Assembly (NCBI GenBank): GCA_016199085.1
Contig: JACQHJ010000001.1
Span: forward strand, 72,477-136,476
DNA: 64,000 bases
Reading direction: 5' to 3'
Source: Candidatus Levyibacteriota bacterium
GTDB lineage: Bacteria; Patescibacteriota; Microgenomatia; Levybacterales; UBA12049
Position numbers and translations under genes: made by a program
The notes under the pieces: model-generated
The model's database searches: none
What the model was told of the DNA's origin: nothing
What the model saw: the letters and a program-made list of their open reading frames with translations, nothing else
Shown: one piece after another, positions 3,305 through 64,000 of the stretch
Layout: each line of letters opens with the position of its first letter
Position numbering within the stretch: position 1 is the stretch's first letter

Positions 3305-4749
3305 ATTCTTGGGAATAGAGATTTTTGTAAGGCTATATCGGTCTTTGTAAATTGGTCGACAATTTTCTTTGCGGTTTGCGGCATAAAAGGCTCAAGTAAA
3401 ATACCAATTTCCACAATCTGATCTACAGCGTGGGCGAGAATTGCCGACAATTCTCTTCCTTTGTGATTGGTTGAGACCTTTAGAAGTTCCCAGGGTTTTT
3501 CCTCATTTATGAATTTATCCAATTTTGTAATTTTTTGAAAAACAAGGCTTAGTGCTTCATTGAACCTAAATTCATCCAATGCTTTTTTATAGTCTTCAAT
3601 AATGTCTATGAAATGGAAATTTTTCTCTCCGGCAAGTGTTTTAAATCCCGAAGTCTCGCATAGCTTACTAACTCTTGCGATTAAATTTCCAAGTCCGTTT
3701 GCCAAATCTGCGTTATAAACTTGCCTAAACTTTTCTTCTGAGAAATCTCCATCACTAAAAGGAGAAAATTTGGAAAGACAGTAATAGCGAAGAGCGTCTG
3801 CTCCGTATTTTTCTATTAAAACACTTGGGTCAATAACGTTTCCTAAACTTTTAGACATTTTCTGTCCGTTAACCGTAAAGTATTCATGGACAAAGATTTT
3901 TTTGGGTAAGAAAAGTCCGGCCGAGATTAAAAATGCAGGCCAATAAACGGCGTGGAATCTGATTATTCCTTTCCCGATAACATGAAGATCTGCTGGCCAC
4001 CATTTTTTATAAAGATTTTCATCGGATCCAAATCCAACCGCTGTTTGGTAAATGTTTAAAGCGTCAAACCAGACATAAACTTTTTGTGTCGGATCGTTAG
4101 GGACCGGAACTCCCCAGTTTTTTGCCCTTTCATTTGATCTTGAAATACTTATATCTTCAAGACCCTTTTTAACAAAGGAGAGCATTTCGTTTCTTCTAAA
4201 GTCAGGAACTATTTCAAGCTCGTTTGATTCAATTAGTTTTAAGATTTTATCAGTATAGTTTGAGAGTTTGAAAAAATAGTTTTCTTCGCTTACTTCTTCA
4301 AGTGGTTTTCCCGGGTGTTCATGGCACTCTCCGTTTTCATCAAGTTCTTCTTTGGTATAAAACTGCTCGCATCCTACGCAATAAAGACCTTTATACGATT
4401 TCTTATAAATATCTTTTTGACAAAGTTGCCAAAGTTTCTGGGAGGATTTGATGTGTTTTTCTTCGCTTCCTTTGACTATGCTGTCAAATTTAATACCAAG
4501 TTTTTCCCAAAGATCCAAAAAAAGCTTTCCGTTTTTATCAACCAGCTCCTGAACGGTTATTCTTTCTTCTTCTGCAGCCTGGACATTTTTTAAAGAGTTT
4601 TCGTCATAGCCACATGACAAAAAAACGTCTTTTCCAAGAGTTTTTTGATACCTTGCAATCGTGTCTGATTGAATAAATTCAAGCGCATGGCCCAGGTGGG
4701 GCCTAAAATTCACGTATGGTATTGCGTTTGTAATATAGTATTTGTTCAT
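3301..4749 (-). CDS. metG: methionyl-tRNA synthetase, compact form
   Basis: HIGH-type motif PHLGHALE near the N-terminus and KMSKSLGNVI; 482 aa with no C-terminal appended domain. Confidence 0.9.
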   Translation of the reverse strand: MNKYYITNAIPYVNFRPHLGHALEFIQSDTIARYQKTLGKDVFLSCGYDENSLKNVQAAEEERITVQELVDKNGKLFLDLWEKLGIKFDSIVKGSEEKHIKSSQKLWQLCQKDIYKKSYKGLYCVGCEQFYTKEELDENGECHEHPGKPLEEVSEENYFFKLSNYTDKILKLIESNELEIVPDFRRNEMLSFVKKGLEDISISRSNERAKNWGVPVPNDPTQKVYVWFDALNIYQTAVGFGSDENLYKKWWPADLHVIGKGIIRFHAVYWPAFLISAGLFLPKKIFVHEYFTVNGQKMSKSLGNVIDPSVLIEKYGADALRYYCLSKFSPFSDGDFSEEKFRQVYNADLANGLGNLIARVSKLCETSGFKTLAGEKNFHFIDIIEDYKKALDEFRFNEALSLVFQKITKLDKFINEEKPWELLKVSTNHKGRELSAILAHAVDQIVEIGILLEPFMPQTAKKIVDQFTKTDIALQKSLFPRI

Positions 4750-4788
4750 CGATTGAATTGTAACAAAGATTGCAAGCTAAGGAAAGAA

Positions 4789-5124
4789 TTAATGTTTTCT
4801 AAAAAAGAAAAGTTCAGTTGCTGCAAATAATATAAAAAGCAAAACCAGGAAGAAGGTTTGGTTAAGATTATTTAATCTAAGAATTAAATAAATCAAAGAA
4901 AAAGTAGCAAGAAGTAACCCTTGGATTTTATTTGCAAAAATAAACCAAACGGTTGTCCAAAGAAAAATAAACAAAAGTAAAAAACCAATAGGTATTGCTG
5001 TTATTTTAAGAGAGGAAAAAGAAACAGTTGTATTGGGTGAAAAGGCAAAGACAAGATAGATTAAGCAAATTAAAGAAATAACAGAAAGAACAGGAAGGAT
5101 TAAAAGTTTCTTTCTTTTTCGCAT
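4789..5124 (-). CDS. hypothetical multi-pass small membrane protein
   Basis: 111 aa, almost entirely hydrophobic helices. Confidence 0.35.
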   Translation of the reverse strand: MRKRKKLLILPVLSVISLICLIYLVFAFSPNTTVSFSSLKITAIPIGFLLLFIFLWTTVWFIFANKIQGLLLATFSLIYLILRLNNLNQTFFLVLLFILFAATELFFFRKH

Positions 5125-5227
5125 ATATAAAAGTTTAGCATAAACAAACTTCTTTCAGGCTTTGGAAGTAGGTTTTGTTAACTGTGTTATTAAATGTGCA
5201 GGAATTAATTGAGGTCCAATTTCCCTC

Positions 5228-5339: not shown

Positions 5340-6071
5340 ATGCACGACTTAACGTCTAGACAAGTCGATATTTTAAAAAGTCTCATCGAAGAATATATAG
5401 AGACTGCGGAAGCGGTCGGCTCTGAGACTTTAGAAAAAAAGCATAATTTGTCTGCAAGCCCTGCAACGATTCGAAACGAAATGGTTCGGCTTACAGAGCT
5501 TGGGTACCTTAAAAAACCGCACATCTCGGCTGGTAGAGTTCCGACTCCCTTGGGGATGAGGTTCTACGTCAAGCAGCTGATGAAAGAAAAAGAGCTCTCG
5601 GTTGCAGAAGAAGTCTCATTAAAGGAAAAAGTTTGGGATTTAAGAGAAAAAGAAAGAGTTTTCTTAAAAGAATTAACCAAAACTTTGGCTGAGCGAACAA
5701 AAGCTTTGGCAATAACAACAACCGATGAAGGAGATCTTTTCTGTGCAGGCTATGCAAATGTTTTGGACAATCCGGAGTTTTTGGATATTGATGTAACCAA
5801 GAATTTATTATCGGCAGTTGACGAATTTGAATATTTCAAGAGCCTGTTTTCAGAACAGGAAGATGATGACGAGATCCATATACTCCTTGGAGAAGATCTT
5901 GGACCAAGATTAAACGGTCCATACGGATTTGTCTATATAAAATACCATACGCCTATGAAGTTAACAGGAAAAGTTGGCGTTTTGGGACCGGCAAGACTTA
6001 ATTATAACTTTGTTGTCCCAACTGTAAGATATTTCGGAGATTTAATAGGAGAGATAGCAAAGGGTTGGTAA
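5340..6071 (+). CDS. hrcA: heat-inducible transcription repressor HrcA
   Basis: N-terminal winged-HTH SRQVDILKSLIEEYIETAEAVGSETL and TIRNEMVRLTELGYL; gene order hrcA-grpE-dnaK. Confidence 0.9.
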   Translation: MHDLTSRQVDILKSLIEEYIETAEAVGSETLEKKHNLSASPATIRNEMVRLTELGYLKKPHISAGRVPTPLGMRFYVKQLMKEKELSVAEEVSLKEKVWDLREKERVFLKELTKTLAERTKALAITTTDEGDLFCAGYANVLDNPEFLDIDVTKNLLSAVDEFEYFKSLFSEQEDDDEIHILLGEDLGPRLNGPYGFVYIKYHTPMKLTGKVGVLGPARLNYNFVVPTVRYFGDLIGEIAKGW

Positions 6072-6072
6072 A

Positions 6073-6501
6073 ATGAAAAAAAATGAAAAGAAAATCGATA
6101 CAAATGAATTTGAGAACCTTGAAAATCAACTAAAAAGGGCATTGGCTGACTATCAAAACTTGGAAAAAAGGATAGCAGGTGAAAAAAGCGAGTGGATTAA
6201 GTTATCTAATAAGGATTTACTGCTTAGACTTTTACCCGGACTTGACAGTTTGCTTTTAGCCGAGAAACATACCCAAGATGATGGAGTTAAAGTTTCAATA
6301 AGACACTTTTTGGATATTTTGGAACAAGAAGGTGTCAAAAAAATTGAAACAGAGGGGAAAGATTTTGACCCTAAAGCAATGGAAGCGGTTTCAACAAGAG
6401 TTGGAGAAGAAGGAAAGGTAGTAGAAGAGTTAAGAGCAGGATATACGCTTTTTGACTTGGTACTTAGACCAGCGCAAGTAATAGTAGGAAGCAAAAGTTA
6501 A
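6073..6501 (+). CDS. grpE: nucleotide exchange factor GrpE (short, 142 aa)
   Basis: LLPGLDSL, FDPKAMEAV and GYTLFDLVLRPAQVIV conserved blocks; operon context. Confidence 0.85.
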   Translation: MKKNEKKIDTNEFENLENQLKRALADYQNLEKRIAGEKSEWIKLSNKDLLLRLLPGLDSLLLAEKHTQDDGVKVSIRHFLDILEQEGVKKIETEGKDFDPKAMEAVSTRVGEEGKVVEELRAGYTLFDLVLRPAQVIVGSKS

Positions 6502-34222: not shown

Positions 34223-37200
34223 ATGAATTTAACTAATTTTGTTAAGTATTGCCTTGGATATGTTAAGTTAACGAAACAAAGATCCTTTTTCTCCCAACAA
34301 AAAAATAGCCTAGAGCTTGATAAGGACCAACTAAATCTTGAAGGTTTGCTAAATGGAGAAGCAGATGGTCAATTAGCGGAGATAATAAATTTAAAGACGT
34401 TTTATTCAAATGATCCTAAAAATATAAGTGGGGAAGAAGAAGAGCAGTATCTGAAAGAAAAAAATTTAGCCAACAAAATTCAAGAAATTTACAATAAGTT
34501 TAGAAACGATCAGTTCACCAAAGAAATCGCAATAAACTTTGGATATTTTGAAATAGAATTAACCTTGGATAATGTTAACGAAGAAGATCAAGATGTGGAG
34601 ATTCAAGAAAAAGAAGTCAAGATAAGTAAATATCCTCTTTTTTCTCTTCCAGTAAAAATCGAAACACAAATAGAAAATGGAATCTACAAGTATTATCTTT
34701 ATTATTCGGACCAAGAGATTAAAGTAAATCTTAATGTATTAGAGAAATTATTTGATGAAAATAATAAAGCAGATACTTTTTATCAATTGATAGAAAAGAT
34801 TGGGGAGGAAGAGATCCAGGGCAAATTTTCTTTACCCATAATTGAGCATGACATACTTTATGAGACTTGGGATAAAGTAAGAGCATTATTAAAACTCACA
34901 GATGCAAAATTTGAGGATGAATCCTTCAATTTAGAAGAAAGTACTCTGTCTTTAAATTCAAAAAGTAATTATTTTTTAGCTGAAGATCTTTTAAAATTGT
35001 CTAAAATAGAAGCAGAAGAACTTAAGGGAACAGCGCTAGAGAGTTGGGTAAGTGATGCGGAAACAAATCTGGAAAGCGAAGTACCCAGTGAGGAGCAATT
35101 ATATTTCCCATTTCCATACGATAGATTTCAGCTTAAGTCACTTTCATTATTGGGTAATCAAGCATCCATAATTCAGGGACCTCCGGGAACAGGAAAATCA
35201 GAAACTATTGCTAATATCTTGTGTCATTTGGCTGCTAATGGAAAAAAAGTTTTGTTTATAAGTCAAAAATCCCAAGCATTGAAAGTGGTTAAAGATAAAT
35301 TAAAAAAAACTGGAATTAATTATATGTTTGGTTATGTTCCCAATCCAGCCTCCGCAAGCGTTACCGAAGAAGATGAAACGGATGGAATTGCCCCACAGCT
35401 TACTGCCTTAAATACTTTTATACAGAAGATGACTTATAAATTAAACTATTGGAATGAGAGAAAGGAGACATTAGGGACAATCTCTCAAAGAATAGGAGGA
35501 TTAAAAAAAAGTTTTAACTCAGTTATAGAAGATGAAAGAAATTATTTTACTCTTCATGAAGAACTAAATGAGCTCTTAAGATATAAAAGTGAAATCGGTA
35601 ATAATAAGGACTTTTTTGAAAATGCTGATTCTGAAAAATGGGAGAAGATTAAAGAATTGATTAATCAATTCCAGGCAGTTGATCTTGAATTATTAAAATA
35701 TAAAAAAAATAATAACGATTTCTCAAATAGATTCCCAATAGAACTTTTCCAAAACGAACAATATTCAATTAAGATTAATGAAATATTGAGTAATGTTTCT
35801 AAAACAGGTTATGATAGAAATTCAAAATTTTTTAGATGGTTGAATAATACTAAAAGAAACATAATATTAAGAAATGTAAGATCCGCCCTTCCCTCCGAAG
35901 TTATTAATGAAATCGACAAAATACTAAATAGTGAAATAAGTAAACATGAATCCAGTAGGCAATTAACTGAGTTAAATGAATTTATCATATTTAGAGAAAA
36001 TACTGTCTTAAAGCAGAAGATTAATGAAGAAATTAAAAAAGGTCTAGAGGTAATCGGTCTAAACATAGACCAATATAAAAATATAGAAAAAATAATAAAA
36101 CAGACTGGCATTGATTTCAAAATCTACAAGGATAAGATTGAAAAGATTAACGAGCTAGAAATACAATTGAAAGATTTAGCAAAAAATTATGATCTTTCAG
36201 AATTGAGAAAAAGCATTAACTCTTCTAAAATTAGTAGATCAAATGTTATAAGCTCCTATATTCAAAATATAATTAACAAAAGAATTATGGACAAGTGGAT
36301 GCTTCAAAATATAAAAAGAGTAGTTCTTAGATTAGCAAAAGCATTTGGTAAGTCGAAGAAAGCATACAAAACCTTCGATGAGCTTAGGAGAGATCCGGAA
36401 AATTTCAATTCTATTATTGACTTAGTGCCTGTATGGATTATGGAGCTTGACGATGCGAGTAGAATTATTCCATTAATGCCCAGAATGTTTGATTATGCAA
36501 TTCTAGACGAAGCTTCTCAATGCAATGTAGCCTATACGCTTCCAGTAATGTTCAGAGCTAAAAAAATTGTCTTTGTGGGTGATCCAGAGCAAATGAGAGA
36601 TAGCACGATTCGATTTAAAGCAAACAGGGATTTTGATGAGCTTGCTAAAAAATATAGTATTCCAGGTGATTTGCAAATAAAATCCACTGGAAATGCAGTC
36701 CAGTCAGTACTAGACATAGCCTTACTTAGAGGATTTAATTCTAATAATCTTCAGTATCATTACAGGTCACCAAAGGAACTTATCGGATTTAGTAATCAAT
36801 ATTTTTACAAACCCAAGGGTAAAGAATTAATCGCATTGAACAACAACTATCTTACATATAGAGATACCAACAGGATAATGTTAGTTCACGAAGTTGAGAA
36901 TAAAAAAAATAATAACGAAGAGATAGCAGATAATATTAATATTGCTGAAGCTAAAGCTATATTAAGTTTTTTTAAGGAATTAAGAGAAAATCCTAATACT
37001 AAAGATAAATCTATAGGTATTTTAACCTTCTTTAATGGACAAGCAACTTATATAAGAGAATTATTTGAGCAAGAAGGATTTAAGGAAGAAGACGATAACT
37101 ACATAGTTAGTATTATTGAAGGTATTCAAGGAGACGAAAAAGATATTATTTTGTATTCTTTTGTAATTAGAGAACTCGATCAAAAAAGAAAATATGGAGC

Positions 37201-38026
37201 ATTAACTGGAGAAGGAGGAGATATTTTAGGTGATATAAATAAGGGAAGGGTAAATGTTGCTTTTACTCGAGCTAGATTACAGGTTCATTGCTTTGTTAGT
37301 ATGGACCCACTTCCTGATAGAATTTGGATTAAAAAATTTATAGACTATATTAAAGAAAATGGAGAAATTAATTTCTATTCGAGCGAATTAAATGATTTTG
37401 ATTCTTTTTTTGAAAAAGAATTTTACGCATATGTAAAAGACTCACTCTCAAAGGAGTATCTTATCCAAAACCAGGTAGAAAGTTGTGGTTTTAAGATTGA
37501 TTTTGTAATCTCCTATAAGCAAACAGGTAAAAGACTCGCAATTGAATGTGATGGCCCAACACATTTCGAAAATGAAGTTGATCAAGAGCTCGGTATTTAT
37601 GTTGAAAGCGATGAAGAAAGACAAACTGTTCTGGAGGCGGCAGGTTGGAGTTTCTATAGAATTAAATATTCAGACTGGATAGATAAGAACAAAGTTAAGG
37701 ATGTATTTATAAATGAAATTAAAAATTATTTCAAAATTTCTTCTGAGAGAGAAACTATTATAGCAAAACCCAAAATAAGTAAGTATGAAGGTATAAAGAT
37801 AGATTTCGATTTAAATCCATATTTGAATAACAAAGAAGTTTGGTTCCTGTTGTCGGTTTGGGGTAAAAAGAGTGGTCAATTTATTGGATTTCAAAATAAA
37901 TTTTGTTATTCTCTAGGTAGATATCTTTCTAGGAAACCTGAGTTAACAGTTAAACAAGCAAACTATGGAAGATATCTTCTTAATACAGCAATTAAAAAAG
38001 GATTTTCCCTAGATGGAATTAAATGA
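34223..38026 (+). CDS. DUF4011 + SF1 (Upf1-like) helicase + C-terminal DUF559 / Vsr-like PD-(D/E)xK nuclease fusion
   Basis: Walker A GPPGTGKSE; LDEASQ; VGDPEQM; NYRSPKELIGFSNQYFY; VAFTRAR; C-terminal FKIDFVISYK...LAIECDGPTHF...AGWSFYRI. Confidence 0.8.
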   Translation: MNLTNFVKYCLGYVKLTKQRSFFSQQKNSLELDKDQLNLEGLLNGEADGQLAEIINLKTFYSNDPKNISGEEEEQYLKEKNLANKIQEIYNKFRNDQFTKEIAINFGYFEIELTLDNVNEEDQDVEIQEKEVKISKYPLFSLPVKIETQIENGIYKYYLYYSDQEIKVNLNVLEKLFDENNKADTFYQLIEKIGEEEIQGKFSLPIIEHDILYETWDKVRALLKLTDAKFEDESFNLEESTLSLNSKSNYFLAEDLLKLSKIEAEELKGTALESWVSDAETNLESEVPSEEQLYFPFPYDRFQLKSLSLLGNQASIIQGPPGTGKSETIANILCHLAANGKKVLFISQKSQALKVVKDKLKKTGINYMFGYVPNPASASVTEEDETDGIAPQLTALNTFIQKMTYKLNYWNERKETLGTISQRIGGLKKSFNSVIEDERNYFTLHEELNELLRYKSEIGNNKDFFENADSEKWEKIKELINQFQAVDLELLKYKKNNNDFSNRFPIELFQNEQYSIKINEILSNVSKTGYDRNSKFFRWLNNTKRNIILRNVRSALPSEVINEIDKILNSEISKHESSRQLTELNEFIIFRENTVLKQKINEEIKKGLEVIGLNIDQYKNIEKIIKQTGIDFKIYKDKIEKINELEIQLKDLAKNYDLSELRKSINSSKISRSNVISSYIQNIINKRIMDKWMLQNIKRVVLRLAKAFGKSKKAYKTFDELRRDPENFNSIIDLVPVWIMELDDASRIIPLMPRMFDYAILDEASQCNVAYTLPVMFRAKKIVFVGDPEQMRDSTIRFKANRDFDELAKKYSIPGDLQIKSTGNAVQSVLDIALLRGFNSNNLQYHYRSPKELIGFSNQYFYKPKGKELIALNNNYLTYRDTNRIMLVHEVENKKNNNEEIADNINIAEAKAILSFFKELRENPNTKDKSIGILTFFNGQATYIRELFEQEGFKEEDDNYIVSIIEGIQGDEKDIILYSFVIRELDQKRKYGALTGEGGDILGDINKGRVNVAFTRARLQVHCFVSMDPLPDRIWIKKFIDYIKENGEINFYSSELNDFDSFFEKEFYAYVKDSLSKEYLIQNQVESCGFKIDFVISYKQTGKRLAIECDGPTHFENEVDQELGIYVESDEERQTVLEAAGWSFYRIKYSDWIDKNKVKDVFINEIKNYFKISSERETIIAKPKISKYEGIKIDFDLNPYLNNKEVWFLLSVWGKKSGQFIGFQNKFCYSLGRYLSRKPELTVKQANYGRYLLNTAIKKGFSLDGIK

Positions 38027-39412: not shown

Positions 39413-39720
39413 TAATAAATTGCAAGTAGAAATGTAACTTAAATTACCACAATTAAAATATGACTCTTATGTAGTTTGGGCAGGTAAAAATAGTAAAAGA
39501 GACTTATAGGAAATTGCTATAGTTAGGTTAACTTTTGTTTTAGTTTGAAATAGTTATTTGAGGCTATAAAGTATTCAAATATTCGTTTGACAAACCAAGC
39601 GACTTGGATAATTATACATATGTATAAGTAATTTCTTCATATCTTGAAGAAATTTACACAGGGTGTTATAATTGCAGTCCTTTGTACTGCCCCTAAGTAC
39701 ATTAAAATTGAATTTATCAC

Positions 39721-39794
39721 AAAGCCGACGAGATTCGAACTCGTAACCTTCCCGTTAGTAGCAGGTTGCTCTGTCCAGTTGAGCTACGGCTTTG
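39721..39794 (-). tRNA. tRNA gene with a short variable loop, no encoded CCA, and a hand-folded anticodon loop CU-ACU-AA
   Basis: Minus-strand AAAGCCG-UA-GCUC-AACUGGACA-GAGC-A-ACCUG-CUACUAA-CGGGA-AGGUU-ACGAG-UUCGAAU-CUCGU-CGGCUUU-G. Acceptor, D and T arms are canonical; the anticodon stem has an A-A mismatch. Confidence 0.6.
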
Positions 39795-57078: not shown

Positions 57079-57564
57079 ATGCCAACACTTAGTCAATTAT
57101 CTAGAAGAGGAAGAAACAGAAAAGTAAAAAAAGTTAAAGCAACCGCTTTAAGAAGGATCTTTAATGCAAGGGAAAGAAGATATAAAGCTATTGAAGGACC
57201 TCAAAAAAGAGGAGTAGTTACTTTGGTTAAAACTATGACTCCTAAGAAACCAAATTCGGCTCTTCGAAAAGTAGCCAGAGTTAAGCTTTCCAACAGAATG
57301 GAAGTAACAGCCTATATCCAGGGAGTTGGACACTCTCTTTCCGAGCACGGAATAGTACTTGTAAGAGGCGGAAGAGTAAAGGATTTACCTGGCGTAAAAT
57401 ATCATATAGTCAGAGGTAAATTTGATTTACAGGGTGTTGAAGGAAGAAGATCATCTAGAAGCAAATATGGAGCAAAAGCAGGCGGAGGACCGGTTAGAGT
57501 TGCAGGAACTGCACCAGCTCCGGCACCAGCGGCGCCGGCACCTGAAGCTCCAGTTGCAGCCTAA
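57079..57564 (+). CDS. rpsL: 30S ribosomal protein S12 with a ~27-aa Ala/Pro-rich C-terminal extension
   Basis: [18 protein letters not shown] and YHIVRG; after the usual SKYGAK end it continues [28 protein letters not shown]. Confidence 0.9.
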
Positions 57565-58054: not shown

Positions 58055-58255
58055 TTATGAAATTTGAGTAGATGTCCCAGAGGGATTAAATGCGTCAATA
58101 TTTTTACTGGCATCCAAAATTTCAATTCCCAAAACTTTTCCATTTTTATCTTCATCCACTAAAATAGCATCAGAGATTTTACGAGTACTCTCGTATTTTC
58201 CCTTTCCTAACTCAATATAAACTGCATCAATTTTTTTATCGTATTTAGTTCTCAT
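58055..58255 (-). CDS. DUF2283-family small protein on the opposite strand between rpsG and fusA
   Basis: MRTKYDKKIDAVYIEL..GKVLGIEILDAS matches the DUF2283 pattern. Confidence 0.45.
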   Translation of the reverse strand: MRTKYDKKIDAVYIELGKGKYESTRKISDAILVDEDKNGKVLGIEILDASKNIDAFNPSGTSTQIS

Positions 58256-58351: not shown

Positions 58352-60451
58352 ATGGCTGAAGACAGGCTAAAAACATTAGATAAAGTAAGAAACATTGGCA
58401 TTATTGCCCATATTGACGCGGGTAAAACGACAACTACGGAGCGTATCCTTTTCTATACGGGAAAGACATATAAAATAGGAGATATTGACGAAGGAACGAC
58501 CCAGATGGACTGGATGGAACAGGAAAAGGAAAGAGGAATCACGATTGTTTCAGCAGCCACAACCGCATTTTGGAATGGTTACAGAATAAATATCATCGAC
58601 ACTCCCGGCCACGTTGATTTTACAGCCGAGGTTGAAAGATCTTTAAGAGTCTTAGACGGTGGCATTACGGTTTTAGATGCAGAAGAGGGAGTTCAATCCC
58701 AGTCAGAAACAGTCTGGAGACAGGCTGATAAATATAATGTTCCAAGACTTTGTTTTGTAAATAAAATGGATAAACTTGGTGCAGATTTTCTGGCAACAGT
58801 TAAATCAATTGAAGATAGGCTTGGTGCAAATCCACTTATTATGGTTTTACCAATCGGTGCAGAACACACATTTAAAGGAATTGTTCATTTAATGGAAATG
58901 AAAGCCTATATCTGGGGATCAGACGAGCTTGGTGCAAAATTTGAGGTAGCAGATATACCGGAAGAGATGAAGCAACAGGTAGAAGAGTATAGACATAAGC
59001 TTATTGAAAAAATTGCCGAAACAGATGAAGCATTAACAGATAAATATCTTCACGGAGAGGATATCACAAACGATGAATTAAAGACAGCGTTAAGACGAGC
59101 TGTCATTTCCTACAAACTTGTTCCAATTTTTGCAGGTTCATCTCTAAGAAACAAAGGAGTTCAGCCTCTTTTAGATGCAGTCGTTGATTATCTTCCATCT
59201 CCTTTGGATGTCGGAGTAACAAAAGGACACGATCCAAAAACCGATGAAATAGTTGAAAGAAAACCGCAAGCTTCAGAACCTTTGGCTGGACTTGCTTTCA
59301 AAATCCAGATTGATCCACACGTTGGAAAATTAACCTACTTTAGAGTCTATTCAGGAACAATCACGGCCGGTTCATATATCTACAACAGCACAAAAAACGA
59401 GACGGAAAGAGTCGGAAGAATTCTTTTAATGCACGCAAACCACAGGGAAGAAATAAAAGAAGCATATGCCGGAGAAATCGTAGCTTTGGTCGGACTTAAA
59501 GAAACAATTACGGGAGACACTTTGTGTGATGAAAAAGCACCAATAGTACTTGAAAAAATCACTTTCCCGGAACCGGTTATCTCTCTTGCCATTGAGCCAA
59601 AAACAAAAGCAGATCAGGAAAAACTAGGTCTTGCCCTAAAAAGGCTTTCCGAAGAAGATCCAACCTTTTCTATTAAAACAAACCATGAGACAAATCAGAC
59701 AATAATTTCAGGCATGGGAGAACTTCAGCTTGAAGTCATGGTTGATCGAATGAAAAGAGAATTCGGAGTTTTGGCAAATGTCGGAGCGCCTCAGGTTGCC
59801 TACAAGGAAACAATCAAAAGTGAAGCAAATGGAGAAGGAAAGTATATCCGCCAATCCGGAGGAAGAGGTCAATACGGTCACTGTTGGTTAAAGGTTGTTC
59901 CAAAGCCCCGTGGAGAAGGATTTGAATTTGTCGATGCAATTAAAGGTGGAGCAATTCCAGCAGAATTTATTAAAGCTATAGAAAAAGGTGTTAATGAAAC
60001 CTTGGCAAACGGAATTTTACTTGGTTATCCAGTTGTTGATTTGGAAGTAACTGTCTATGACGGAAGCTATCATGACGTTGATTCTTCAGAAGTAGCGTTT
60101 AAGATTGCCGCATCCCAGGCATTACAGGCAGCTTCTAGAAAAGCAGATATGGTACTTTTGGAGCCAATCATGAAAGTTGAAGTAACAACCCCATCTGAAT
60201 TTATGGGAGACGTAATCGGAGACCTTTCTTCAAAAAGAGCTCAGATTATGGGAACACAGGAGCATGGAAAGGCAACTGTAATTCTTGCGATGGTGCCCTT
60301 GGCAGAGCTTTCAGGCTATGCAACGACAATTAGATCAATGTCTCAAGGAAGAGCCTCATATTATATGGAACCTTCGCATTACGAAGAAGTTCCCCAAAAT
60401 ATTGTCCAACAGATGTTGGTAAAATCCACATTCACGGGAAGAGTTGAGTAA
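58352..60451 (+). CDS. fusA: elongation factor G
   Basis: [28 protein letters not shown] and NKMDK. Confidence 0.97.
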
Positions 60452-60518
60452 AAACTCTTCTTGACATTCTTTTTAAGAAACTGTATTTTCATTCCAATGC
60501 CCTGACAGGGTATTTTTT

Positions 60519-61523
60519 ATGCCAAAACCACAAGGATCAGAAACCAGAGCTACTACTCAAAGTCAAATTGAGAAAAGAGGCGGAATTAAAATTGACGCAT
60601 GGACAGGTGGCCCAAGAGGAAACGAAATTACAACTTATGTCGATCCAATTTCCCGTGCTTTAAGCGTCGTTTATGATATAACCTCATTAAGAAGTCCACG
60701 CGAAAATCCAAGAGCGAATTTGGGAAAGTATCGCAGACCAAGCACTTATCCCATAGCTGCCGATGTACCAGAACATGGCGCAGGAGAGTTAACTGAGGAA
60801 CAAAGACGAAGAATGGTAATAGGAAGTGAGATTACGCATGTTTTATGGAATTTATTGGTAGCCAGTAAAGCCGAAGGAGAGATAGTCGGAATTAGCAGGG
60901 AGGATTATAGTAGGTGGATTAATTTAAGAATCGGAAGTTATAGACAAGAATTTTTATTTATTGGTCCTCAAGATCCGCCCCTGCCAGATGTCAGGGCAGT
61001 AGAATACGAAGGTCAAAGCATCTATTTTCCCACACCAGAGCTTCTTGATGCATATGGAGTAGAAAAAAGAGCAGAACAGCCAAAGCATTTAATTGATGCT
61101 AAAAAACCATTTGAACCAGGGCTTTTGGGTATTAGAGGCAAGGGAAAGATTAAGGTTTCGGTAAATTCGGAACAAGGTTCAGATCGAATTAGTATAGCAG
61201 CTCTGGCGCATTTTACAGGCGTAAATGTCGAATATTTCCATGATGGAATATTGGAGATTGTTACACCGCAGCAGGCGTTAGATTTTATACCAGAGGATGA
61301 AATAAAAGCAAGAATGGAAAGTATCGAGCATAGTATTGGTTCGCTTGAGCATGATCGAAGAGAACCAGATGCTTCTGATCGAGAAATAGACATAAAAATT
61401 GCCCGACTTCATGCAGACCTTGCTGTCTATAAAGCCTTAGAACAAAGACTTTTTAACAATCCTTATGCCGCCGCAGATAAAGGAGCAACAGGTTCCGAAG
61501 ACGATAAAGATGGCCAAATCTGA
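60519..61523 (+). CDS. hypothetical protein (334 aa), higher GC than the flanks
   Basis: ORF only; composition shifts relative to fusA. Confidence 0.35.
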   Translation: MPKPQGSETRATTQSQIEKRGGIKIDAWTGGPRGNEITTYVDPISRALSVVYDITSLRSPRENPRANLGKYRRPSTYPIAADVPEHGAGELTEEQRRRMVIGSEITHVLWNLLVASKAEGEIVGISREDYSRWINLRIGSYRQEFLFIGPQDPPLPDVRAVEYEGQSIYFPTPELLDAYGVEKRAEQPKHLIDAKKPFEPGLLGIRGKGKIKVSVNSEQGSDRISIAALAHFTGVNVEYFHDGILEIVTPQQALDFIPEDEIKARMESIEHSIGSLEHDRREPDASDREIDIKIARLHADLAVYKALEQRLFNNPYAAADKGATGSEDDKDGQI

Positions 61524-62176
61524 ATTTGATCAGGATTTGGTATTTCGGGAACAGCTTCTGTAGGCTTTGGGGGAGCAAGATCCAACCACAATCTCTCAAG
61601 TTGAGGATAAAAACTATCATTTAGAATTTCTTGTGGGGTCTTTTCTTTATAATCTTCCTCGCCTCCGTTTATTAAAATAATCCTATCTTGGGTAAGCCGT
61701 TTTGAGATCGCGGCTTCTTTTTGTTTATCACTGAGCCTGTTCCATTCAACTCTTGCCAGTTTTCTTGTCCAGAGACCTATTAATTGACCACTACTTTCTT
61801 CTTTAAACATTTTATCTCTAAGTTGTTGTTTGTATCTTCTTTTTCCATCCGTGCTTGATTTTACCTCTACTTTTACTTCTCTTACCCTAAAACCCGGAAC
61901 AAATACTATGGTTAAATCGCTCCCTTCTGCATATTGCGCATTTAGAGTTACATTTTCAACGATTTGAGTTTGAGATTCAATTATGCGTTTCGTCCTAACT
62001 TCAACAGCCGCCCCCCTGGCATTCCAGAGATTTGGTGGAACAGTCCCTTCCTCAGATCGTATTGCCATTAATGTACCTCTCCAAAGATAGAAAGGAAGTT
62101 GTGGCAAGTTTGGATGATGAGGCTGCGGGCGTAAGCCTCGAAGATTTACGGTAGCTGGTGGTACTTCAACTGCCAT
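61463..62176 (-). CDS. hypothetical protein with a possible PD-(D/E)xK-like D...EVK motif (start may be the internal Met at 62068)
   Basis: GSDLTIVFVPGFRVREVKVEVK; 3' end overlaps the 60519 ORF by about 60 nt. Confidence 0.3.
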   Translation of the reverse strand: MAVEVPPATVNLRGLRPQPHHPNLPQLPFYLWRGTLMAIRSEEGTVPPNLWNARGAAVEVRTKRIIESQTQIVENVTLNAQYAEGSDLTIVFVPGFRVREVKVEVKSSTDGKRRYKQQLRDKMFKEESSGQLIGLWTRKLARVEWNRLSDKQKEAAISKRLTQDRIILINGGEEDYKEKTPQEILNDSFYPQLERLWLDLAPPKPTEAVPEIPNPDQIQIWPSLSSSEPVAPLSAAA

Positions 62177-62266
62177 CTAATTCATTGTTGAAGTATTTAA
62201 AGTTTTTTGTCAATGACTAATGTATTAATTGACTTATTTCTTGATCGTTAATATAATCCGTAAATT

Positions 62267-62605
62267 ATGCCAAACGGTCTTGAGCTTGAAGTGTATCTAT
62301 TATCAGGTTGGAAAACTTATGATCGTGTTCCAAGTACCGAAAGGCAATTTTTCCTTAGGCAACCAGAGCATGCTGGAATTAGAGAAAAAATTGTCTTTAT
62401 CCAAGAAACCAAACCAAGGCCATTCACTTTTGTTACCAGAACTGTATCAAGTCTTGGGTTAGGGGATGTAGAGGCTGGAACTACAATTAGGGAATTACTC
62501 ACAGTTTTAACCTGGGGAGAATCTTTTTATTTTGCGGAAACATACATAGACGCCGATAAAGGCTCAAAAGATTACCCCCCAGTTCATAGAATAACTCAGC
62601 GATAA
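62267..62605 (+). CDS. hypothetical protein (112 aa)
   Basis: ORF only. Confidence 0.3.
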   Translation: MPNGLELEVYLLSGWKTYDRVPSTERQFFLRQPEHAGIREKIVFIQETKPRPFTFVTRTVSSLGLGDVEAGTTIRELLTVLTWGESFYFAETYIDADKGSKDYPPVHRITQR

Positions 62606-62611
62606 GGCTAA

Positions 62612-62839
62612 TTATTTCTTGCTCATTTTGGCATACCAATCATAGAGAGCCCAAACGCCAGCTATACCAACCAATACATATACGAGATTAGCAAGACCAG
62701 GCCATGTACCAAACAGTAAGCCTACGACATTCCAATCTTGTCCTCCCATGTATGCACCAAGTCCAATGAGGCCCCAATTTAAAGCTCCTACAATTATTAA
62801 TACCATTGCTGCTGTCGGAACGTATTTCAAATTAATCAC
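62612..62839 (-). CDS. DUF378-family small membrane protein
   Basis: VGALNWGLIGLG...DWNVVGLLFG...ANLVYVLVGIAGV. Confidence 0.5.
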   Translation of the reverse strand: MINLKYVPTAAMVLIIVGALNWGLIGLGAYMGGQDWNVVGLLFGTWPGLANLVYVLVGIAGVWALYDWYAKMSKK

Positions 62840-62882
62840 CCCCCTTTTTGTATAAACTAAACCTAATTAAATCATTAGCCTT

Positions 62883-63521
62883 TTGGTGACAATTGTCAAG
62901 CCTTATAAAACTATAGACAAATTAAAGCCTAAACTATATACTCCGGTTGTAATGATAAGACGAGAAGTTTGGTCTTTTACAACTCCTGTCCATATGCGCC
63001 TCGCAGAAGAAGGTCCAAGATTTGATCTTAACTTTGGCCAAAGAATTAGACAATCTGGAATAAAAGATAGCGTGCAAAGAAAAATCTTTTCCCACGAGAT
63101 TTTATCTAAATTGCCTTTGGAAAAAGCGCCTTCTCAGCCTGCACCGGCTGAGCTGGACATAAGTGAAGAGGAAATGCTTGCACGCGGTTGGGATCTCTTG
63201 CCTCATGCTCCAAGGTTACATTATAGGTCAATAGTTAGAGGAGGGTATATTTTTACTCTTCATCAAATTTTATCAGGAGTACTGCAATTTCAGACAGCAA
63301 GGATAGAAAGACCGGATATTATTGATTTAGTAACTGTTACAAATGATCTTTTGGAAATACAGACAAGGCAAATTGACTTCGATAACCCGCAAAACTCTAG
63401 AGTGTTACGCCATCGTGCTAATGATGAGAGTGTGATTGACGATATAGAAAGGAAAGTTCAAGAGCTTATCTCCCCAAACCCTGTTCAGTTGGAATTTGCA
63501 GGCAACATTTTTAGTGTATAA
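62883..63521 (+). CDS. hypothetical protein (212 aa)
   Basis: ORF only. Confidence 0.3.
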   Translation: MVTIVKPYKTIDKLKPKLYTPVVMIRREVWSFTTPVHMRLAEEGPRFDLNFGQRIRQSGIKDSVQRKIFSHEILSKLPLEKAPSQPAPAELDISEEEMLARGWDLLPHAPRLHYRSIVRGGYIFTLHQILSGVLQFQTARIERPDIIDLVTVTNDLLEIQTRQIDFDNPQNSRVLRHRANDESVIDDIERKVQELISPNPVQLEFAGNIFSV

Positions 63522-63530
63522 TCTATTTCT

Positions 63531-63860
63531 ATGGCAAAAAAAAGTCCTTCTCCGTTTGGTTTTTATTTTTCCTATCTGGATAAAGTAGATAAAGGCGTAA
63601 AAGATACAGAAGAATTCGGCTCAATGCTAATTTTGGGTATGGTTGAGGAACTTGGAGAAATGAGTAGAGCCTATCTAGCAAAGCACGGAAGAAAACCAAG
63701 AAACATTGCGGCTCAACAAGACGAGGCATATGAGAGGGAGCTAGGCGATATTTTAGTGTCCATACTTCGCCTTGCCAGAATTAAGGATATTAATCTGCAT
63801 GAGGCTTTAATGTATTCTTTGCAAAAAATCGAAAGAAGAAAGAATAACCCCAAAAAGTAG
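63531..63860 (+). CDS. MazG-like nucleotide pyrophosphohydrolase (small all-alpha NTP-PPase)
   Basis: GMVEELGEMSRAY and ELGDILVSILRLA (EExxE...ExxD) motifs. Confidence 0.5.
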   Translation: MAKKSPSPFGFYFSYLDKVDKGVKDTEEFGSMLILGMVEELGEMSRAYLAKHGRKPRNIAAQQDEAYERELGDILVSILRLARIKDINLHEALMYSLQKIERRKNNPKK

Positions 63861-63913
63861 CCTTTGAAACAAAACCTCAGCCTTCCCGTTATATATCTAA
63901 CAAAGTTATTATT

Positions 63914-64000
63914 ATGAAAGCATTATTGCCGTTTAGTCTTTTGGTTAATATTGTTTTTTCTATCGTAGAATTCTTTTTAGGCATAAGAATTCTTTTGAGG
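63914..64000 (+). CDS. 5' end of a small membrane protein running off the window (possibly YggT-like)
   Basis: MKALLPFSLLVNIVFSIVEFFLGIRILLR. Confidence 0.25.
   Translation, partial: MKALLPFSLLVNIVFSIVEFFLGIRILLR

Follow-up and report, generated by a model that had tools for sequence, protein, structure and literature searches.

Excerpts of a study of Gammaproteobacteria describe multigene insertions between concatenated translation and transcription operons (Brandis et al. 2019, PMC6735719). Excerpts of two further papers identify DUF4365 as the DREN nuclease domain of SPARDA short-Argonaute (pAgo) defence, which degrades DNA non-specifically once activated (PMC10810196, PMC12205087). Here we compare with these and related systems a block of six open reading frames (ORFs) that lies downstream of fusA, at 60519-63860, in a 64,000-nt stretch of the genome of a Candidatus Levyibacteriota bacterium (the window, by which we mean the whole stretch of DNA analysed), and in particular two of its products, a putative PD-(D/E)xK-fold nuclease of 237 aa (o237) and a MazG-type nucleoside triphosphate (NTP) pyrophosphohydrolase. 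A sequence-only reading of the window had taken this block, which occupies the place where tuf was expected, for a horizontally acquired cassette and possibly a small conflict or stress system. We find it reasonably probable that the block is native, that the fusA-tuf interval of Levybacteria is a species-variable slot in which MazG and the nuclease have been inherited, and that the genes of the block are independent of one another; the nuclease may be a solitary, conflict-related enzyme. The flagged block is thus mostly ordinary, and its value rests on the nuclease family.

The interval between fusA and tuf

The six ORFs follow the gene string rpoB-rpoC-rpsL-rpsG-(antisense DUF2283)-fusA (49.9-60.45 kb), whose last gene, encoding the 699-aa EF-G (58352..60451, + strand), anchors the variable interval at its upstream end. 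No tuf is detected in the window by tblastn with E. coli EF-Tu, and a strain-level contig that continues past the window's end to ~64.42 kb adds a YggT gene and an ORF for a small membrane protein, and again no tuf. The region downstream of fusA is free of tuf for at least 3.97 kb, as against the classical fusA-tuf joint of less than ~150 nt, and the displacement of tuf from behind fusA, already remarked in the sequence-only reading, is real. To place it, we scanned 80 species-representative fusA loci for fusA and tuf (codes such as L001 are our labels of the loci examined). The two genes are 29-150 nt apart in genomes outside the candidate phyla radiation (CPR), and the gap in the eight closest Levybacteria that have both genes is 90, 694, 2296, 3528, 4727, 5026, 5285 and 7841 nt, a separation of 0.7-7.8 kb in seven of these eight species representatives. 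Several other CPR genomes have a gap of 0.5-3.6 kb, or no tuf within the available flank (3.7-10 kb). Because the separation of fusA and tuf is class-wide in Levybacteria, the displacement of tuf is a class trait rather than an event in this genome.

The rpsG-fusA joint is opened as well, by 1.2-7.1 kb of other genes, in four Levybacteria (L001, L003, L008, and L009), and the str operon of the class appears to have two variable joints, fusA-tuf and rpsG-fusA. The genes lodged in the Levybacteria gaps are diverse and of ordinary kinds: a PIG-L deacetylase, a glyoxalase, a GH18 protein, Maf, an MFS transporter, an epimerase, a D-Ala-D-Ala ligase (Ddl), an ICMT-type methyltransferase, a SAM methyltransferase, an AAA/DUF4143 protein, a tRNA-binding protein, and hypothetical proteins. 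In most of these loci the guanine-plus-cytosine (GC) content of the gap is close to that of the locus itself. We propose that the fusA-tuf slot in Levybacteria would hold a few kb of assorted genes whose content differs by species, and that in the window species-specific ORFans (o334, o112, and o212) and small membrane proteins (DUF378 and YggT) would surround MazG and the nuclease. For CPR bacteria, then, "fusA then tuf" is an unsafe expectation, and a broken order is by itself a sign neither of gene transfer nor of misassembly; that fusA-tuf and rpsG-fusA appear to be habitual slots for lineage-specific genes should be useful to annotators and to users of operon synteny.

The fusA gene of the window is 74-84% identical to its best matches in the genome collection, metagenome-assembled genomes of Candidatus Levybacteria (Patescibacteria/CPR), and 87-92% identical to those of its own narrow lineage (89% both for L081 and for L095). 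It is 82-84% identical to fusA of named Levybacteria genomes, and 82-89% is the range for Levybacteria fusA; the NCBI names of o334 and o212 likewise point to Levybacteria. Neither the nuclease nor MazG occurs within 10 kb of fusA in any of the 80 species representatives, whose fusA is at most 84% identical, even when hidden Markov models (HMMs) are used, and the arrangement therefore belongs to one narrow lineage. The loci of this lineage were found by searching with the nuclease. In L081 (GCA_000380825.1) the order is rpoB-rpoC-rpsL-rpsG-fusA-MazG, with MazG starting 36 nt after fusA on the same strand, followed by the nuclease and a 147-aa gene of a family that we call X, both antisense, and then by a 184-aa gene, tuf, rpsJ, def, and rplC. 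The same convergent pair of MazG and nuclease is found in L084, L085/L086, L088, and L090; the end of fusA is also present in L084 and L085, and tuf in L085 and L086. In L082 an antisense nuclease comes directly after fusA and is followed by a forward MazG and then by GDPD, GNAT, a 735-aa ORF, and tuf. L083 likewise has fusA facing an antisense nuclease, L087 and L093 carry a divergent MazG/nuclease pair, and in L089 the nuclease lies 1.3 kb from the end of fusA. L095, which has no MazG, reads fusA, a 96-aa ORF, the antisense nuclease, a 125-aa ORF, an antisense X-like gene, GNAT, Maf, HisPhos, NUDIX, and tuf. The tuf of this last locus is split into several ORFs (3685-5213), the N-terminal part being fused to the NUDIX ORF, which probably reflects assembly frameshifts rather than a pseudogene.

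In every locus with enough flank (L081, L082, L083, L084, L085, L089, and L095), then, the nuclease lies between fusA and tuf in antisense orientation, and MazG directly adjoins it in eight of the ten distinct related loci (L081, L082, L084, L085/L086, L087, L088, L090, and L093). The two genes are convergent or divergent and never co-directional, and their relative order varies among genomes. In the window they are 1.35 kb apart with three genes between them: the layout is that of L082, with o334 inserted before the nuclease and with o112, the DUF378 gene, and o212 inserted between the nuclease and MazG.

The nuclease-fold family and its neighbours

The nuclease gene, o237 (61463..62176, - strand), had been singled out for a nuclease-like D...EVK motif. 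A protein search returns nine relatives at 32-58% identity, and an exhaustive search with the family profile returns 163 cluster representatives at E <= 1e-3 among 1.84 billion, 38 of them at E <= 1e-30; the names of these clusters are uninformative except for "Candidatus Levybacteria hypothetical protein". Across 71 sequences D87 is invariant, E59, K106, S107, N170, and G171 are at least 90% conserved, and position 104 is E or Q, such that the motif first noticed in the sequence is preserved in homologues as D87 and (E/Q)104-x-K106. The family also has a strong C-terminal strand-helix motif, 'ILINGG...EILNDSFYPQLERI', a conserved N-terminal segment with the consensus 'EALRIAPxxxDGxTP' that is poorly kept in the window protein, and, in some members including the window protein, a 25-residue helical insertion. 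An AlphaFold2 model built from a 10-sequence alignment has a mean confidence (pLDDT) of 78, above 90 in the core, and its elements follow the order helix (48-67), strand, strand, strand, helix, and, further on, strand and helix. E59 falls within the first helix and E104 and K106 on strand 3, with D87 where strand 2 begins. Judged from this model and the alignments, o237 has both the core alpha-beta-beta-beta-alpha-beta fold and the catalytic residues by which PD-(D/E)xK proteins are recognized.

Described families offer few matches. The protein has no Pfam match even at E <= 1, although weak matches to DUF4365 (PF14280) appear in nine of its 71 relatives, the best at E 1.4e-4. Sequence searches of the PDB with o237 and with two family profiles (A1 and A2) gave nothing relevant, and a Foldseek comparison of the model with PDB and viral structures gave no match at E < 0.1, the weak matches being again nucleases. 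A scan of metagenomes with the nuclease profile gave two loci, and one of viral contigs gave none. Based on conservation and the predicted fold, o237 is a putative member of a new, small, unnamed, and hypervariable PD-(D/E)xK nuclease-fold family. Such a protein, of 180-270 aa and encoded antisense to fusA, would act as a Mg2+-dependent endonuclease using E59, D87, E104, and K106. We considered a homing endonuclease and rejected it, given that the gene is present in all genomes of the lineage seen rather than sporadically and lies outside any intron or intein. A place in a restriction-modification system was likewise rejected, given that no methyltransferase is encoded within the interval.

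The variation of the nuclease is out of step with that of its surroundings. Among L081, L084, L085, and L088, MazG is 92-97% identical (74-97% over the whole lineage) and the nuclease 37-76%, and the nuclease of L095 is only 24-36% identical to the others. The C-terminus of fusA is 86-96% identical in the lineage, and the 184-aa membrane protein is 72-86% identical over the same distances. The nuclease of L085 is 53% identical to that of L090 and only 37-40% identical to those of L081 and L084, despite near-identical flanks (MazG 96-97%). At the DNA level, L085 and L081 can be aligned through MazG-fusA, the 184-aa gene, and tuf; short segments upstream of the starts of X and the nuclease, reaching into the first codons, align as well, whereas the gene bodies do not. 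The X genes (L081 9469-9912, L084 744-1247, L085 1084-1680, L090 1-408, and L095 6993-7553) form a divergent family of 147-198 aa with a helix-turn-helix-like 'LGIT..Q' segment and without a Pfam match. X is co-directional with the nuclease and 46-88 nt upstream of it in L081, L084, L085, and L090, and nearby in L095; it may resemble Xre/ParS-type antitoxins. The window has no member of the X family, as judged by an HMM, and its nuclease has no co-directional partner gene within 435 nt, unlike a type II toxin of a toxin-antitoxin pair.

Because the catalytic residues of the nuclease are kept while the rest of the protein turns over and is discordant with the flanks, the pattern is like that of a conflict gene. 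The idea of a conflict system, which had been raised for the whole block, is accordingly narrowed here: given the hypervariable sequence and the kept residues it is plausible for the nuclease alone, and it does not extend to the block. Since the nuclease diverges far faster than its neighbours yet keeps its catalytic residues, we envisage that it could be a solitary, specificity-shifting endonuclease, restriction-like or otherwise conflict-related, and not a core repair enzyme. A small uncharacterized nuclease-fold family that diverges fast with its catalytic residues intact shows the evolutionary behaviour of genetic-conflict genes, and should the nuclease turn out to be a stand-alone defence or selfish element, it would add to a very short list of such functions in the CPR.

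MazG (63531..63860, + strand, 109 aa) is a different kind of gene. It scores 32.8 bits against the Pfam MazG family (PF03819; cut-off 22, E 8.4e-8), MazG-like PHROG families match it too, and its metal-binding motif is intact (E39-E40-L-G-E43 ... E70-L-G-D73, aligned with the same residues of YpjD), which confirms the identification as a small MazG-like NTP pyrophosphohydrolase. The closest solved structure in a PDB sequence search is that of Bacillus subtilis YpjD (2gta, 5.7e-8). The protein is 77-81% identical to the nuclease-adjacent MazG proteins of relatives, a conservation comparable with that of fusA in the lineage. The earlier statement that no gene of the block is recognizably housekeeping is accordingly doubtful for this one, a YpjD-type enzyme conserved about as well as fusA; on sequence grounds, the simplest reading is that it is a house-cleaning NTP pyrophosphohydrolase and a fixture downstream of fusA in this lineage. 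An enzyme of this type would hydrolyse non-canonical (d)NTPs to NMP and PPi through its EExxE...ExxD metal site, an activity that would suit a nucleotide-scavenging CPR cell.

House-cleaning pyrophosphatases of three unrelated superfamilies, MazG, Maf, and NUDIX, recur in the fusA-tuf intervals of Levybacteria (Maf at 13451-14038 in L002, Maf and NUDIX at 5829-6419 and 4719-5213 in L095, MazG as above in the window). This recurrence may or may not be more than chance.

Several observations weigh against the reading that we favour, namely a native, species-variable slot with an inherited MazG and an inherited, solitary nuclease. In this genome tuf has never been seen downstream of fusA. The claim that the nuclease is always present is biased, as the lineage loci were found by way of the nuclease itself. 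The adjacency of MazG and nuclease is seen in one narrow lineage and may reflect shared ancestry, or may hide a real functional link. Lastly, o334, o112, and o212 have no homologues beyond strain-level copies, and their origin may lie in fast evolution, in de novo birth, or in an unsampled donor.

A further possibility, which we offer tentatively and regard as unlikely, is that the fusA-tuf interval is a dedicated conflict locus anchored by the solitary hypervariable PD-(D/E)xK endonuclease, as a member of an undescribed and distantly DUF4365-like family. Recombination would then exchange nuclease alleles, sometimes together with X, among strains and leave the conserved upstream segments in place. 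If true, this locus would be a new minimal defence or addiction element lodged inside one of the most conserved gene strings of bacteria, in organisms with tiny genomes.

That the two inherited genes make up a dedicated conflict module is unlikely. On this hypothesis the nuclease and MazG, in some genomes with X, form a unit for defence or addiction: the nuclease would act as effector, and MazG or X would either modulate its action or clear phage-type nucleotides. The frequent adjacency of MazG and nuclease in related loci would be expected of such a module, as would the position of X just upstream of the nuclease in the four loci named above, the retention of E59, D87, and K106 in a hypervariable protein, the disagreement between the nuclease tree and its flanks, the loss of homology between L085 and L081 over the bodies of X and the nuclease but not just upstream of their starts, and the distant similarity to the effector domain of SPARDA. 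Nevertheless, MazG and the nuclease are never co-transcribed, being always convergent or divergent in an order that varies; L095 has the nuclease without MazG; in the window three genes separate the two and X is absent; MazG is conserved like a housekeeping gene; and there is no PADLOC match. All of the evidence moreover comes from one narrow lineage, in which the synteny may be simply inherited.

It is improbable that the nuclease is instead a housekeeping enzyme of DNA repair or recombination (Hjc/RecU/Vsr-like) which, together with MazG, would combine sanitation of the nucleotide pool with excision directed against non-canonical nucleotides. This is the function that a stable position among core translation genes, and the recurrence in the interval of the three pyrophosphatase superfamilies (MazG in the window, Maf in L002 and L095, and NUDIX in L095), would suggest. 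Core repair enzymes, however, do not fall to 24-40% identity where fusA is at 87-96% and MazG at 92-97%, the family is very small, at 163 representatives in 1.84 billion, and the gene is absent near fusA in other Levybacteria.

Probable native character of the block

The sequence-only reading had described a block of visibly higher GC, and this description does not hold. In 500-nt windows the GC of the block is 0.376-0.422, compared with 0.34-0.424 across rpoC-fusA, and in 2-kb bins it is 0.401 and 0.386, compared with 0.381-0.404. Overall the block spans 0.38-0.42 and the str operon 0.37-0.41. GC at third codon positions (GC3) is 0.26-0.35 in the ORFs of the block, the host mean being 0.288 with a standard deviation of 0.047. 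A three-periodic Markov coding model, for which 28 long genes of the window served as the training set, gives every one of the six ORFs a positive score in the annotated frame only (2.1-7.0 bits/100 nt, and -3 to -30 in the other five frames), a range that brackets the scores of the two recognized families, MazG (5.1) and DUF378 (3.9). Given these scores and GC3, the ORFs look like real, native genes: GC, GC3, and codon statistics all match the host, and the deviating composition or codon usage that marks a horizontal island is missing from the block.

The expression signals point in the same direction. Promoter-like sites precede o334, the nuclease, o112, the DUF378 gene, o212 (in its 189-aa form), and MazG, and in four of these, the nuclease, o112, o212, and MazG, 7-9 nt separate the -10 hexamer from the start codon (8-9 nt in o112, o212, and MazG). 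About 20 of the 56 genes of the window have a TATAAT-like hexamer whose end lies 6-13 nt ahead of the start (hexamer end and start codon at, for example, 62257/62267, 62942/62952, and 63522/63531), and only about 12 of the 56 have a Shine-Dalgarno-like motif, which suggests, from sequence motifs, that leaderless or near-leaderless mRNAs are widespread in this genome. Since this layout is common across the window, the block uses the expression signals of its host. A terminator scan places two hairpins on the + strand after fusA, one at 60435-60463 that overlaps the fusA stop codon and one at 60496-60514 with a T-run 3' of the stem; the RNA fold has an energy of -23.6 kcal/mol (z = -2.9 versus shuffles), and both are consensus-level predictions only. 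A promoter-like site (60461-60489, + strand) lies between them. No Rfam element is found in 57-64 kb. Because the genes of the block face both ways and mostly have promoter-like sites of their own, they are independent genes and not one operon or system, and a scan of PADLOC-DB v2 gave no match at E <= 1 for any of seven proteins. These observations speak against the proposal that the block is a single conflict or stress system.

The horizontally acquired cassette that was originally proposed, a recent arrival that broke the str operon, is on these data largely refuted for the block as a unit and quite improbable. It draws on the ORFans o334, o112, and o212, which have no relatives beyond strain-level copies, on the finding that the six block genes are not within 10 kb of fusA in the 80 species-representative genomes, and on the homology between lineage genomes, which ends exactly at the fusA stop codon. 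Against it stand the native GC, GC3, and frame-specific codon statistics, the use of the host's leaderless-type promoter layout, the lack of viral relatives, and the general separation of fusA and tuf in Levybacteria. Searches with Pfam and PHROG find no integrase or transposase in the block, which also lacks bounding repeats (only short chance-level repeats were seen) and a tRNA gene, the sole tRNA of the window being at 39.7 kb. MazG and the nuclease, finally, are present at the same junction in genus-level relatives; for the block as a whole, the same arrangement in relatives and a matching composition are what had been named in advance as speaking against a cassette.

The suggestion that a chimeric join at ~60.46 kb placed unrelated DNA after fusA, whose only support is that homology with relatives breaks off abruptly behind the fusA stop codon, is refuted, as an independent assembly contains the fusA/o334 junction: a Logan contig (L091, SRR12113420; other run and assembler) aligns without gaps to 60436-62320 at 98.3% and runs from the last 16 nt of fusA through the spacer, o334, and the nuclease into the start of o112, two more contigs match 61406-62326 at 99.2% (L092) and 63107-64000 at 99.3% (L094, SRR12113422, which continues for 421 nt through the YggT gene into the small membrane ORF), and in two relatives, L082 and L083, fusA is likewise followed directly by the nuclease. 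The Logan contigs evidently represent other sequencing runs of the same population.

All six ORFs were recovered where they had first been drawn. Scans of every ORF with Pfam recognize DUF378, MazG, and DUF2283 and nothing else, and NCBIfam and PHROG scans give only weak MazG-type matches for the last ORF of the block. The first ORF, o334 (60519..61523, + strand), is a species-specific coding gene convergent with the nuclease gene, the 3' ends of the two overlapping tail to tail by 61 nt, as the sequence-only reading had it. Searched against 5.8 billion proteins, it matches only itself (NCBI HY344_00680); Pfam, NCBIfam, PADLOC, and the PDB give no match, and the PHROG matches stay below threshold (E >= 0.012). 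It scores as coding (7.0 bits/100 nt, other frames negative), and the 29 differences between two strains comprise 15 synonymous and 9 non-synonymous codon changes, an excess of synonymous changes that is consistent with purifying selection. Of these differences, 24 (25 nt positions) are packed into 60881-61019, where 25 of 139 positions differ, and the two strains are ~99.6% identical elsewhere. This segment has the look of a tract imported by recombination and not of targeted mutagenesis; a diversity-generating retroelement acting on the ~140-nt hyperdivergent patch was rejected, as the changes are mostly at synonymous third positions and are not adenine-specific. The AlphaFold2 model of o334 is poor (pLDDT 38) and confident only for a C-terminal helical hairpin (259-313).

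The small species-specific ORF o112 (62267..62605, + strand) is preceded by a promoter-like site, TTGACT-17-TATAAT (62229..62257, + strand; 11 of 12 matches), that ends 9 nt before its start. No other of the six gene calls is as weak (2.1 bits/100 nt, positive in this frame only), and o112 has no significant family or PDB match, Pfam Ion_trans_2 (E 0.39) and PDB 4g10 (E 0.033) being far below threshold; strain-level contigs carry its first 54-60 nt unchanged. The third ORFan, o212 (62883..63521, + strand), is coding-positive in its own frame only and 99.3% identical in a strain-level contig. Its sole match among 5.8 billion proteins is again itself (NCBI HY344_00700, 189 aa), and it has no significant family or PDB match and a single PHROG match at E 0.077. 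A start at 62952, giving 189 aa, is more likely than one at 62883 in view of the NCBI call and of the promoter-like site that ends 9 nt upstream. No homology emerged when o334, o112, and o212 were compared by a sensitive method with every neighbouring gene in relatives, and PDB sequence searches with these three and o237 gave only spurious matches (IpaD and GST).

Between o112 and o212 lies the gene for a small membrane protein of ~72-75 aa (62612..62839, - strand), for which the earlier assignment to DUF378 is upheld by Pfam (PF04070, 3.1e-13). Among the fusA loci, only L033 has a relative of it, and it is not in the interval of any genus-level relative. A 14-nt inverted repeat (93% complementary; 62604-62617 and 62869-62882) brackets the gene almost exactly and could be chance or a trace of the gene's arrival or inversion. 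Downstream of MazG, a 110-aa YggT-family membrane protein starts at 63916 (63916..64000, + strand) and runs past the window's end (Pfam YGGT 3.7e-9, via contig L094).

Elsewhere in the window, a 66-aa DUF2283 gene (58055-58255, - strand; Pfam 3e-15) lies antisense between rpsG and fusA. The rpsL product, ribosomal protein S12 (57079-57564, + strand), has 161 aa, with a low-complexity C-terminal tail past the ~133 residues that align to relatives in tblastn; the S12 genes called in L081 and L095 are likewise long (162 and 165 aa). In composition, the true outlier of the window is one 1267-aa ORF (34223-38026, + strand), with a GC of 0.30 over 34-38 kb versus ~0.37 elsewhere, that encodes SF1 helicase domains (AAA_11/AAA_12) and a C-terminal nuclease domain of the REase_MTES_1575/DUF559 type and lies 1.7 kb from the window's only tRNA gene. 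As a candidate for an acquired or defence-type gene, this ORF is to be preferred to the post-fusA block. ARAGORN calls the tRNA gene as a 76-nt tRNA-Ser (39719-39794, - strand) whose anticodon, ACT, is at position 36; class-I length and an A34 anticodon are unusual in a serine tRNA, and this one is possibly a miscall or an odd tRNA.

Comparison with described systems

The minimal PD-(D/E)xK nucleases (Hjc, 1ob8, 1hh1, and 1gef; I-Ssp6803I, 2ost; VRR-NUC/FAN1; Vsr; and type II restriction enzymes) have the same predicted core fold as the o237 family and share with it the acidic residue of helix 1 (E59), the aspartate of strand 2 (D87), and the (E/Q)-x-K of strand 3. The o237 family differs from them in its own N-terminal segment and C-terminal motif and in the helical insertion of some members, and it evolves far faster than a resolvase would.

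MazG is encoded beside a nuclease also in the mazE-mazF-mazG genes of E. coli, where MazG is a two-domain protein of 263 aa that is co-transcribed with mazEF and MazF has an RNase fold unrelated to that predicted for o237. The shared feature is thus the proximity of a MazG and a nuclease, although in the lineage of the window the two are never co-directional. A closer counterpart of the window's enzyme is YpjD of B. subtilis, with other single-domain MazG-like enzymes, which resembles it in size (109 versus 119 aa), in its domain, and in the EExxE...ExxD motif; the identity is only ~30-35% over 70 residues, and the position downstream of fusA is peculiar to the present lineage.

The DREN domain (DUF4365) of SPARDA belongs to the same superfamily as the predicted nuclease, with a weak sequence link. 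It goes together with APAZ and a short Argonaute, whereas o237 is free-standing in a family of ~200 aa, and no APAZ, Piwi, or Argonaute gene, fused or adjacent, was found in any locus inspected.

The insertions in Gammaproteobacteria, so far as the excerpts of Brandis et al. (2019) describe them, are alike in that unrelated genes are lodged between universally linked translation genes and in that their content depends on the lineage. Those insertions sit between operons, whereas the ones in Levybacteria lie inside the classical str operon, at fusA-tuf and rpsG-fusA. Furthermore, unlike in the gammaproteobacterial case, insertion between fusA and tuf seems to be the rule in this CPR class, with seven of eight species carrying it.

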